A stretch of 64,000 nucleotides of DNA from an uncultured Clostridium sp. (lineage in GTDB: Bacteria > Bacillota > Clostridia > TANB77 > CAG-508): contig CAMYZH010000002.1 of assembly GCA_947303785.1 (NCBI GenBank), positions 10,158 through 74,157 on the forward strand, written 5' to 3'. Shown here piece after piece: positions 28,789-54,362 of this stretch. The notes under the pieces are model-generated. The model was not told the origin of the DNA. It worked only from the letters and a program-made list of their open reading frames with translations, and searched no databases. Within the stretch, counting starts at the first letter, position 1, and each line of letters starts with the position of its first letter. The position numbers and the translations under genes are program-made.

Positions 28789-28817
28789 ATGTCATTTAAG
28801 CCCGTCCCCATTGACAC
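28789..28817 (-). repeat. Degenerate REP-like unit overlapping the last codons of the 2378-aa ORF
   Basis: The reverse complement reads GTGTCAATGGGGACGGGCTTAAATGACAT. It encodes ..GVNGDGLK plus the stop. Confidence 0.6.
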
Positions 28818-52500: not shown

Positions 52501-54362
52501 ACATTATTATCTCCATCTTTTAGACTCTCTACCTTTTCTATTTCAAGCTCTCCATTTGCATAAAACATATCAATATTTTTGATAGAAACTCCTTGAATCG
52601 CTTGTGGTAATCTAACTTCAAATATTGGATTTTCATATAAATCAGATGTTTCTTCATTATTATTTAATTTTATTTGAATATTGACATTCTCATTATTAAC
52701 TATTGTAGAAAGTTCTTTTTGACCAACTTCAATAGTTGCTTCTGTAACAGTAGGTGAAAATTCAATGCTACTTTGAGCAACTCCTAAATCATCTACAATT
52801 CCTTCATTATAAATTGTATATCCTTGTGATTGATTTTGTAATGAAACAAACTGTTTTACTATGTCTTTTGAATAGTCTAGTTTCTTCATTACTTTTTGAC
52901 TTATAATTGTTATCATTCCATCATTTACTGGTGAACTTGTTCTAATTTTAATTTTAGAAACAGGATTATTATACTCAACTATGAAATTACCATTTTCATC
53001 AGCATCCATGTCCATTGTAATAGTTGATAATACTTCATCATTTAAACTTAATATCTCTATTTTTCCATCAGTACCTAAAATATTTACTAAGTTTTCTTTT
53101 GAAAATTCGGTTTTGCTATATAGTGACATTTTATTTTCATCAACTTCTGTACTATATGTTTTTCCACTTTCATCAATGAAAAATTCATCTTTATCCACTA
53201 TTTCCACAGATGAAATCAACTCTGATCTACTAATATATAAACAATCTTTTTTAATATAAGTTATTTCATATTTTTCTTGTTGGCTATCTGCTAATAAATA
53301 TCCTTTACTTATCTTATTTGCTTTATTTTCTCTTACATAGCTTACAACTCCTCCAACTGGAGAACTTAAATCATATATTGCTTCTATTTCTATATTTTCT
53401 TCGTTATCTGAATAATTCTTTATTAGTCCATTTATTTTTCCAACAACTGTTGTAGGCTCTTCTTCCTCTCCTTCATAAAATAATGTTATTATATAAGTAT
53501 CTTCATCACTAGAATTCATGATACTTTCATTAGCTCCATTATTTGCTAAAATATTTATGTATCCTTCACTTATTGTATAACTTACATCTTCTGAAAGTAT
53601 TTCATAATCACTTCTACCTTGTGTAAAAGAAAGTTTTTCACATTCAACGGTAGTATCTGAATATTCCATTCCTGGAATCTCAGGTATTTGAATCTGAATG
53701 TTTGTATTTTTTACAGGGATAATATTTTCTTTTTCACATTTAGAAACTCTAAGTGCAAATTGTAAGATTTTTCCTTTTATTCCATCTTTTTCATAATTAA
53801 GATTTTTTATTAAATCTGTTTCTATCTTTGTTTTGCTTTCTTGTTTCCAATTCAATTTCAAATCAATTACTTGCTCAATTGTATGTTCTTTACCGTCATT
53901 ATCAACAAATACACCTGTAAATGTTACTTTATTTGTCTTAGAAAAATAATCTTTATCATAAATTTCTTTTGATGAAAAAATAATTGGAATAGACCAGCTT
54001 TCACTTTCATCTTTTTTGATATATGGAACCTGTATTTCTCCATCCTTTATAGGAACCTCATTTTCCTCTTTGATTTCAAAATTTAAATTTTCTCCAAATT
54101 TAAATTTTCCATTTTTCAAATATCCTTTTCCAATTGCTTTAATCTCTAAGTTTAACATCAAATTTTCTTCTTGGACATCACAGTCAATATTTGATTCTTT
54201 CTCAATTTCTGCAGTTGAAAAATACCCATTTACTTTAACAAATTCTTCTTGACTTTCTGCAAATGAAATATTTGAAAGTATTGGTAAACTATTTGCCAAC
54301 ATCATCACAATAACACATAATATTGCAATTGTTTTTTGACTTAAAATTCTTTTCTTTTGCAT
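49533..54362 (-). CDS. Class A surface protein, locus 2 (1609 aa), paralog of the 1807-aa protein
   Basis: Signal peptide. SdrD-B-like GIAYVDSNVNQQFDDNEPTLGGIVVNLY..DMGGRYLFDIAQNNQYYVKFNY. KLAKVDINP..(V/L)(Y/I)(V/E)EY.I.V.N.G block shared with the paralog. C-terminus DVDSTANN..EDDLSYADSIIGISTGL + TM + KIIDERRYV. Confidence 0.85.
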   Translation of the reverse strand: MQKKRILSQKTIAILCVIVMMLANSLPILSNISFAESQEEFVKVNGYFSTAEIEKESNIDCDVQEENLMLNLEIKAIGKGYLKNGKFKFGENLNFEIKEENEVPIKDGEIQVPYIKKDESESWSIPIIFSSKEIYDKDYFSKTNKVTFTGVFVDNDGKEHTIEQVIDLKLNWKQESKTKIETDLIKNLNYEKDGIKGKILQFALRVSKCEKENIIPVKNTNIQIQIPEIPGMEYSDTTVECEKLSFTQGRSDYEILSEDVSYTISEGYINILANNGANESIMNSSDEDTYIITLFYEGEEEEPTTVVGKINGLIKNYSDNEENIEIEAIYDLSSPVGGVVSYVRENKANKISKGYLLADSQQEKYEITYIKKDCLYISRSELISSVEIVDKDEFFIDESGKTYSTEVDENKMSLYSKTEFSKENLVNILGTDGKIEILSLNDEVLSTITMDMDADENGNFIVEYNNPVSKIKIRTSSPVNDGMITIISQKVMKKLDYSKDIVKQFVSLQNQSQGYTIYNEGIVDDLGVAQSSIEFSPTVTEATIEVGQKELSTIVNNENVNIQIKLNNNEETSDLYENPIFEVRLPQAIQGVSIKNIDMFYANGELEIEKVESLKDGDNNVIRISLFGTQTSYDLNKETNGTIISIDTDLVVNEFIGNVSEMIELYYINQSATTYTNSLPWNMVLEENGQINGYAASEISYKGPEELIMGQATETKEEEANEAEENTNNRVSTVKQGADSELLEENVEAKLATMFISMINNTQKRYTNFVILGRIPFAGNKNIQTGEDLGTTVDTILHSEITTEYADLEYKVYYSENGEATEDLENPDNGWNENYFKMGEIKSYLIVFNSEYVFEPGDSIEFMYDYVIPADLQPGDAFYGIYNTYYNEVDNESFSEIAPDKIGYETEKIANLEASMYLNGELKENSDSRLEFNILNTSEADAKNIRIVMPKDEMIYVKDVYGENISLNQEDENVIFEIPLITKNSEFDFTVEIGAFRKPEGKDRLSFKAEITGENIETKEIETEEYEILENRFEVNSYFYDEKIKVGQENSASYSVYNIDDKDYENVVITKKFDNAFSIISAEVIENENATIEIDQAKNEIRCRVKEFKQDDIIIISYKFEIKNPGNNQCVNKAKIENNCNLGNGEEFNTVDIVEYKIPIVSIEKLNLTETGYSKTGSEIEYKYKITNNSIEDAVGMSLDVNLSGDAIIDSINIYNDNFESGEMVRGEDSKLFVNVMKNDYKYLTIRVIVNDDAKEFIQNEIHLSLKNIFDKKITEYTIIENQENDDDKKLSGIAYVDSNVNQQFDDNEPTLGGIVVNLYNSLNNECVGSTVTDMGGRYLFDIAQNNQYYVKFNYDETKYSISKDSNELSQNKANVLNINNNYVTDNISVSDTSIANVNLPLTNENKFDMSINSTVEKMTVQNSAENTEFIAENKKLAKVDINPDLVSDSRVLIEYKIEVKNQGTLEGNVNKIVDYIDDDIVFDSTLNPDWYLGGDGNLYTTALKDTTLKPGESKELRLVLIRKMTDENTGLVHNCVEIAEAVNSKGIADVDSTANNRLDEDDLSYADSIIGISTGLSIGVLPIVLVGIVVLILIGFVVWKIIDERRYV

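Follow-up and report, generated by a model that had tools for sequence, protein, structure and literature searches.

What do five very long open reading frames (ORFs), lined up head to tail along the minus strand of a genome fragment from an uncultured Clostridium sp. (GTDB lineage Clostridia; TANB77; CAG-508), encode, and do their products act together? The fragment, hereafter the window, is a 64-kb stretch of contig CAMYZH010000002.1 with about 28% G+C. The ORFs are arranged as two tandem units, each composed of a gene of class A followed by a gene of class B (A2-B2, or unit 2, and A1-B1, or unit 1). The reading we favour, to which we assign a probability of roughly 0.6, is that A and B constitute a co-expressed 1:1 two-protein surface adhesion module, in which A would be a constant rod and B a variable, probably thioester-bearing adhesin. 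The genes are as follows.

49533-54362, minus strand: A2, class A, ORF of 1609 amino acids
43414-49533, minus strand: B2, class B, ORF of 2039 amino acids
37651-43074, minus strand: A1, class A paralogue, ORF of 1807 amino acids
28792-37654, minus strand: B1, class B paralogue, disrupted, spanning B1a and B1b
35915-37654, minus strand: B1a, 5' part of B1, ORF of 579 amino acids
28792-35928, minus strand: B1b, 3' part of B1, ORF of 2378 amino acids

An original prediction, made from the letters of the window alone, had placed the ORFs at these positions and described them as two paralogous A-then-B units, and in this it was right: the coordinates are exact, and the paralogy is seen by BLASTP. 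A1 and A2 are 31% identical over 836 amino acids (42% over the last 320), B1b and B2 29% identical over 1343 amino acids, and B1a and the head of B2 26% identical; because these values are low, the duplication is considered old. The translational coupling proposed within each unit, with a GGAGG inside the upstream gene, is likewise confirmed by the junction sequences. The A2/B2 junction reads GAAAGGAGGTATGTATAATG (AGGAGG-N-TAATG, with a TAATG overlap) and the A1/B1a junction reads AAGGAGGTGATTGTATGA (AAGGAGG-N-ATGA, with an ATGA overlap). A hydrophobic, signal-like segment is present at the N-terminus of A1, A2, B1a and B2. An exact-sequence look-up of the window's own A and B proteins found none on record, and a scan of the window against Rfam gave no match.

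Whether the pairing is more than a peculiarity of one genome was judged from 75 loci of species-representative genomes, recovered with a profile of B proteins, in which A and B genes were called with purpose-built hidden Markov models (HMMs) for regions of A and B. All 75 loci are carried by uncultured gut Clostridia represented by metagenome-assembled genomes (sources rabbit, Hadza people, mouse and roe deer), among them Clostridium sp. CAG:508, CAG:245 and CAG:354, Candidatus Merdicola, and one 1.8-Mb circular chromosome (L005). An A gene ends at most 400 nucleotides upstream, on the same strand, of 64 of the 74 testable B genes, and a B gene comes next after 66 of the 71 testable A genes. 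The A-then-B adjacency, which the original prediction had singled out beforehand as the observation on which it would stand or fall, is thus found for 86-93% of the testable genes across these loci of different species. The intervening gaps are mostly 10-25 nucleotides, or else the genes overlap. The profile was needed for this survey: a scan of the species-representative genomes with the single B2 sequence gave no match, a word-indexed protein search with B retrieved only three to eight true relatives, and the relatives came from the profile scan together with an exhaustive search of representatives, in which 210 clusters carry the B head at E<=0.001. The orthologue of B2 named P0001 is 92% identical to it, and the orthologues of A2 are 42-62% identical.

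In more than 40 protein clusters, A and B are naturally fused in frame (e.g. P0006, P0008, P0104, P0105 and the group P0106-P0147 of about 2497 amino acids). The joint of the fusions is a two-helix membrane hairpin, formed by the C-terminal helix of A, a short basic loop and the N-terminal helix of B; in one locus (L081, 138-15494), two fused A-B genes stand in tandem and are followed by ACPS, TatD and UDG genes. The adjacency of 86-93%, the gaps of 10-25 nucleotides and the many natural fusions give good support to A and B as a functional unit. Of the functional two-component surface structure originally proposed, it is therefore the functional unit that stands, on pairing and fusions; a physical two-component fibre would be putative.

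The chromosomal site is also shared. The usual context is (radC-mreB-)mreC-mreD-PBP2-minC, two or three small divergent genes, one to three A-B units, and spoIIE, and upstream of the A-B units (the PBP2-minC side) the window has the same context as its relatives. Downstream of the units, the window has genes for YfiH/Cu-oxidase_4, UDG and AddB (27135-28633, minus strand) where most related loci have spoIIE. Between minC and A2, the opposite strand carries three small genes (54594-55377, plus strand), an arrangement kept in L002, L003 and L080; a family search of the small divergent ORFs between minC and A gave no assignment.

The two partners differ in architecture. The order of parts in class A is as follows.

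A2, minus strand, 1609 amino acids: signal peptide, all-beta rod, SdrD_B (1294-1377), conserved membrane-proximal module (1290-1570), GISTG, hydrophobic segment, basic tail
A1, minus strand, 1807 amino acids: acidic/Thr-rich stretch (about 59-193), DUF11/CLIPPER (1055-1143), SdrD_B (1487-1594), GIQTGG, hydrophobic segment, basic tail

Class A had been expected to combine DUF11-type and SdrD_B modules. SdrD_B is indeed present in both proteins (E=1.4e-8 in A2, where it is the only Pfam match; PF17210, E=1.1e-15 in A1), but DUF11, now named CLIPPER, is detected by Pfam in A1 alone (PF01345, E=3.5e-12). A1 also matches the NCBIfam model TIGR01451 (E=3.5e-15) and, among PDB sequences, SdrD (E=4e-5). 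According to precomputed Pfam annotation, most class A relatives carry both CLIPPER/DUF11 and SdrD_B, and a 52-sequence class A profile matches SdrD structures at 2e-21; the first 900 amino acids of the class match no Pfam family. This N-terminal part was modelled with AlphaFold2 (AF2) for A2 residues 36-1200, using 52 homologues. The model (mean predicted local distance difference test score, pLDDT, 84.9) consists almost entirely of strands, in about 11 sandwich domains, and its Foldseek matches are multi-Ig proteins only (PrgB Ig-like domains, MG domains of alpha2-macroglobulin and complement, integrin legs, mastigonemes). A distinct N-terminal adhesive head is absent from residues 36-1200 by AF2 and Foldseek, the beta-sandwich fold starting at the first residues; as modelled, A is an all-beta rod without a head. 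Its length is nearly constant over the family (median 1667 amino acids, interquartile range 1638-1692), and its membrane-proximal module is the best-conserved part of either protein, with 48% pairwise identity. In A1, residues 59-193 (42500-42900) form a lineage-variable acidic/Thr-rich N-terminal extension.

Class B, by comparison, carries a head. Its parts, and the codons of the head residues discussed below, are the following.

B2, minus strand, 2039 amino acids: signal peptide, TED-like head (30-540), Gly/Ser linker, SdrD_B-like modules from about 602 and about 1251, conserved core 909-2000, IPPNG, hydrophobic segment, basic tail
49330-49332, minus strand: codon of C68 in B2
48859-48861, minus strand: codon of W225, the end of YVNQAFW in B2
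47995-47997, minus strand: codon of Q513 in B2
35915-37654, minus strand: B1a, with signal peptide and head containing C86 (37397-37399) and YVQHAWW (Q252, 36899-36901)
28792-35928, minus strand: B1b, with an insert of about 790 amino acids, candidate bond-forming Gln Q758 (33655-33657), stalk, core, SEPTG, hydrophobic segment, basic tail

Profile searches of B against Pfam, NCBIfam and PDB sequences left the head and most of the core without a family assignment, and the Pfam SdrD_B matches in B1b are below threshold only. Family alignments nevertheless bring out three conserved features of the head. The first is a Cys motif, [ILVFY]C[A-Z][EQK], near residues 70-110, whose Cys is present in 43 of 45 sequences in one alignment (A8) and in 33 of 35 in another (A5); in the window it corresponds to C68 of B2 (DWLCAKYD) and C86 of B1a (SIMCSAKT). 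The second is QxAxW, with Gln in 40 and Trp in all of the 45 heads. The third is a C-terminal Gln, the candidate partner in bond formation, which is present in 33 of 38 ungapped sequences, in an AQxLI-like context 25-35 amino acids ahead of the first SdrD_B-like module, and which is Q513 in B2 (PCQDPAF) and Q758 in B1b (VAQHLIQ). These features correspond to the three motifs of the thioester domain (TED) of TIE proteins, [YFL]C-phi-zeta, TQxx-phi-W and phi-Q-zeta-phi-phi (PMC6194298). In the AF2 model of the B2 head (pLDDT 68.9), QAFW lies in a helix (192-202 in the truncated numbering), followed by a long helix and by a well-predicted sandwich, and Q513 lies in the turn between two long predicted strands, i.e. 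in a hairpin. The head is the least conserved region of B, with 20% pairwise identity as compared with 41% in the core, a gradient that would be typical of an adhesin tip. On these grounds, the B head is likely to be a TED and a candidate for thioester formation.

It should be noted that several results weigh against this assignment. B2 reads YVNQAFW, with Asn at the position of the family Gln of QxAxW (B1a reads YVQHAWW), and the N-lobe of the B2 head model is only moderately confident. Foldseek with the whole B2 head against the PDB (350,542 chains) found no match at E<=0.001; chains of class II TEDs appear at ranks 12 (6fwy_C), 24 (6fwy_A) and 43 (6fwv_A), but with E-values of 0.3-0.65 they are not significant. 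Neither the Pfam models TED (PF08341) and TED_2 (PF20610) nor the NCBIfam thioester/TQXA models matched B2 or B1a, and no TED model matched any of 35 family heads even at E<=10, while TIEpLS20, used as a positive control with the same Pfam library, was matched by TED_2 at 1.3e-6 and by TED at 7.3e-5. A search of PDB sequences with the B head profile found nothing, and hhalign of the head against the validated TED of TIEpLS20 aligned the Cys motif only (iYCIE/IVYCID), with a probability of 0.5%. The Gln and Trp in TQxx-phi-W are, for their part, not essential in TIE proteins (PMC6194298). The thioester-like head of the original prediction is thus upheld by the three motifs, and not by any HMM match or significant fold match.

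The unit 1 copy of the class B gene requires a separate comment, since it had been given as 579+2378 amino acids. It does not comprise two genes: B1 is a single gene that is broken in this assembly. Three-frame translation shows that the frame switches between 35958 and 35915 on the minus strand, and that the frame of B1b opens just 10 codons before its ATG; a run of AAAA at 35957-35954 is a candidate site of a one-base insertion. Three single-ORF orthologues, P0151 (2718 amino acids), P0153 (2874) and P0155 (2675), align to B1a plus B1b with 44-57% identity, and in tblastn against the window they change frame between 36143 and 35832. The B protein of L005, also a single ORF, aligns through residues 2-460 with B1a 4-519 and through residues 556-1762 with B1b 795-2354. 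A GGAGG is present upstream of the B1b ATG. The possibility that B1a and B1b are two real genes was rejected in view of the single-ORF orthologues, the lack of a signal peptide in B1b, and the position of the Cys and the Gln on separate ORFs: the frameshift parts the putative bond partners, leaving C86 on B1a and Q758 on B1b. The middle one of the three small genes (54791-55130, plus strand) is frameshifted relative to a 118-amino-acid orthologue in L080, so that two indels are found less than 20 kb apart, and for this reason an indel error of the assembly is as likely an explanation for B1 as true pseudogenization. The insert of about 790 amino acids in B1 (B1b 1-790), which lies between the sandwich of the head and the candidate Gln, is lineage-variable and contains a coiled coil at B1b 450-717 with weak SMC-like matches.

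As for the retention of the proteins at the cell, the C-termini of A1, A2, B2 and B1b all consist of a hydrophobic segment followed by a basic tail, without LPXTG, in agreement with the transmembrane helix plus basic tail that had been predicted for them in place of a canonical LPXTG. The termini have the tripartite layout of a wall-sorting signal with non-canonical pentapeptides. In class A the motif is [GS][IV]xTG, with TG invariant or nearly so over 52 sequences (GISTG in A2, GIQTG in A1); in class B it is [LIT]PP[FTYN]G (e.g. LPPFG, TPPTG), with the variants SPNTG, APSTG and EPTG (IPPNG in B2, SEPTG in B1b). In the A-B fusions, the sorting-like signal of A is internal, and therefore a retained membrane helix would fit at least as well as cleavage by a sortase. 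Neither the window nor the related loci have a sortase in or beside the A-B units. The only sortase of the window, of class C, is 22 kb from the units, beside a protein with the canonical motif LPLTGG; because this protein and its sortase occur in the same genome, the motifs of A and B are regarded as distinct from the canonical sorting motif. One TIE protein, TIEpLS20, works with neither LPXTG nor sortase (PMC8092201). The separate surface locus to which the sortase belongs (3655-16646, minus strand) comprises the 3429-amino-acid LPLTGG protein (6357-16646), the pilus-type sortase (5389-6279) and an ORF of 513 amino acids (3655-5196) for which no family match was found. The LPLTGG protein has sandwich modules of the A type, 26-28% identical to A1 and A2 over 98-365 amino acids.

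The signals that would govern transcription of the two units are listed here.

54407-54487, minus strand: promoter region of unit 2, with TTTCCGTAAT at 54487-54478, -35 TTGACA at 54434-54429 and -10 TAATAT at 54412-54407
43121-43209, minus strand: promoter region of unit 1, with TTTCCGTAAT at 43209-43200, -35 TTGACA at 43148-43143 and -10 TAAAAT at 43126-43121
43362-43401, minus strand: hairpin terminator after B2, strong, 16-pair stem (program scan)
28672-28718, minus strand: hairpin AAGAGG...CCTCTT with T-rich tail after B1b, read by eye and not reported by the terminator scanner

Both promoters are of the sigma-70 type, with a 16-nucleotide spacer between TTGACA and the -10 element, and that of unit 1 scores 11 of 12 consensus positions in a program scan. 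The element TTTCCGTAAT is common to both and lies about 45-50 nucleotides upstream of the -35. The promoters had been called near-identical, which overstates the case: their cores agree at about 32 of 43 positions, i.e. about 74%. Across the family, a near-consensus promoter, TTGAAAAA-N-(TGTCG)TATAAT, is found upstream of the A genes in 52 of 61 loci (L001-L079). The hairpin at 43362-43401 separates unit 2 from unit 1, and the claim that each unit has its own terminator is sustained, in unit 1 by the hairpin at 28718-28672 that was recognized by eye only. In a subset of loci, a TTCCGTAA element and a TTTCCA...TGGAAA palindrome are present about 55 nucleotides upstream of the -35, and this region may be a regulator site.

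Taken as an adhesion module, each unit would be transcribed as one message from a strong promoter of the sigma-70 type, yielding two giant proteins whose signal-like N-termini fit export, and translational coupling would keep them in fixed proportion. A would be a rod of constant length, built of Ig-like, CLIPPER/DUF11-type and SdrD_B-type sandwiches and lacking a distinct head, whereas B would present a fast-evolving N-terminal head with the hallmarks of a thioester domain, carried by a conserved stalk that contains SdrD_B-like modules. Both would be held at the cell surface by the C-terminal signal that resembles a cell-wall sorting signal. Judged coarsely by the domain count, fibres of about 50-70 nm would be expected. 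The head of B might then bind a ligand on the host or on a partner, possibly covalently, with A acting together with B in 1:1 proportion, and the two old copies in the window would probably differ in specificity.

An obvious alternative is that A and B are independent fibrillar adhesins that share an operon for co-regulation only, with no physical or mechanistic partnership. Some observations speak for such independence: each protein has complete export and anchoring signals and is made of generic stalk domains; about 10% of the B genes have no adjacent A gene; the lengths of A and B are weakly correlated (r=0.29); and in loci with two pairs the nearest-neighbour assignments of A and B are concordant in 13 of 26, as often as chance would give, a result that is uninformative. 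The last three of these also count against the adhesion module. Against independence stand the fixed A-then-B order, with gaps of 10-25 nucleotides or overlaps, in dozens of species, the recurrence of the tandem unit as a whole in one to three copies per locus, the in-frame fusion of the two genes in more than 40 clusters, and the lack of a recognizable binding head in A. We consider this alternative unlikely.

Decidedly unlikely, in our opinion, is a role of the pair as a structural layer of the envelope, i.e. a surface coat or spacer linked to cell shape or division, rather than as an adhesin. The fact that the whole lineage keeps the pair at one site, with mreCD-PBP2-minC on one side and spoIIE on the other, the strong, near-consensus and apparently constitutive promoter, and the tight constraint on the length of A (interquartile range 1638-1692 amino acids) would suit such a layer, as would the nature of the hosts, which are small-genome uncultured Clostridia (PMC11680825). 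A coat would hardly be expected, however, to have its fastest-evolving part (20% identity) in a head with adhesin-type TED motifs, nor to vary from one to three copies with one copy broken in the window, and no S-layer or wall-binding domains were found in the proteins with Pfam and NCBIfam. The neighbourhood of spoIIE, which lies directly downstream in many loci, could also suggest sporulation-related surface appendages, and YlbD_coat matches a small ORF nearby, though faintly and below threshold (E 0.002-0.015). This appears highly improbable, since the promoters match the vegetative sigma-70 consensus (TTGAAA/TTGACA-17-TATAAT), the membrane-anchor topology fits display on vegetative cells, and the unit is not beside spoIIE in the window nor, apparently, in its closest relatives, L005-L008, where no spoIIE was found downstream of A-B. 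Two other candidates were rejected: two-partner secretion, which is a diderm system and whose transporter gene was seen neither within the units nor next to them, and a sortase pilus, in view of the giant subunits and the absence of an adjacent sortase.

The adhesion module can be compared with several known systems. Class B has the same layout as the TIE proteins (BaTIE, EfmTIE86, SfbI, CpTIE and TIEpLS20; PMC6194298, PMC4450167, PMC8092201), namely a signal peptide, a head with three motifs, an Ig-like stalk and a C-terminal anchor. As in class II TEDs, there is a predicted beta-sandwich within the class B head, between the Cys and the candidate Gln, and the Cys motif of TIEpLS20, IVYCID, nearly equals the family motif iYCIE. 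Unlike the TIE heads, the B head escapes all TED HMMs and profiles and is much larger (about 500 amino acids, with inserts of 600-800 amino acids in B1-type proteins); moreover, class B proteins are three to four times longer, lack LPXTG, and have an obligate upstream partner gene that is fused to theirs in some lineages. Class A resembles the CLIPPER (DUF11)/SdrD_B stalks of adhesins (bioRxiv 10.1101/2025.04.25.650565; PMC12617251), such as S. aureus SdrD, in its CLIPPER/DUF11 and SdrD_B modules, its long tandem array of beta-sandwiches, its signal peptide and its C-terminal anchor. It differs from them in having no adhesive head, a length nearly fixed across species, no Pfam match in the first 900 amino acids, a position preceding a B gene, and the anchor motif [GS][IV]xTG instead of LPXTG.

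The partnership itself has looser parallels. The combination of a thioester-type adhesin with an Ig-like-domain protein encoded next to it is shared with Cpa of S. pyogenes and its shaft pilin, which reportedly form a sortase-assembled pilus with a thioester tip adhesin. The A-B units, in contrast, have neither pilin-sized subunits, A and B each exceeding 1600 amino acids, nor an adjacent sortase, and the A-B fusions through a transmembrane hairpin in some genomes do not fit polymerization into a pilus. The Mycoplasma adhesins P1/P40-P90 (P140/P110 in M. genitalium) have an operon arrangement and C-terminal transmembrane anchoring, and form a heterodimer. The likeness to A-B is one of analogy only (two large, C-terminally membrane-anchored proteins from adjacent genes, one complex, and a reduced-genome, host-associated bacterium), since no kinship of sequence or fold is expected and mycoplasmas have no wall. 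The Mycoplasma adhesins are described as forming a transmembrane adhesion complex (PMC11984735).

The original prediction had also left room for the outcome that both proteins belong to a well-characterized pilus or adhesin family. This is true of their parts (CLIPPER/DUF11 and SdrD_B, and a head that resembles the TED of TIE proteins), but no characterized family is known to have such an obligate A-B pair. With a CLIPPER/SdrD_B stalk and a TIE-like head, both of known kinds, A-B appears to be a new variant of the fibrillar and TIE adhesins. Its new aspects would be the obligate A-then-B pairing, the headless partner of constant length, the very divergent and enlarged head, and the constant place on the chromosome, in a gut lineage about which little is known.

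Many species keep the unit at the same place in the chromosome, and it takes up about 10 kb in genomes of about 1.8 Mb; it is therefore probably central to attachment. A link to immunotherapy response has been reported for the TANB77 clade, whose cell surface is almost undescribed (PMC11680825); Clostridium sp. CAG:508, the namesake of a major TANB77 family, is among the carriers. For adhesin biology, the gain would be a head of the thioester type that has diverged beyond the reach of current models, a partner protein that is obligate, and a series of fusions that predicts 1:1 co-function. One may speculate further, and we do so tentatively and with more doubt than belief, that A-B is a 1:1, C-terminally membrane-anchored heterodimeric fibre and a defining surface organelle of uncultured, small-genome gut Clostridia of the CAG-508/TANB77 kind, in which the rigid A rod would hold out or gate a hypervariable, covalently acting thioester head of B, for permanent attachment to the host mucus or to partner microbes that bacteria with such reduced genomes need.

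Two further loci of the window may be mentioned. On the minus strand, mreC (58786-59595) comes immediately after radC (59635-60369), and mreB, which stands between the two in L080 (radC-mreB-mreC), is missing at this place. A cohesin-domain protein (19139-19915, minus strand) adjoins one that combines papain-like peptidase, lectin-like and dockerin domains (19988-22297, minus strand), and the region 19139-22297 could encode a small cohesin-dockerin display pair.

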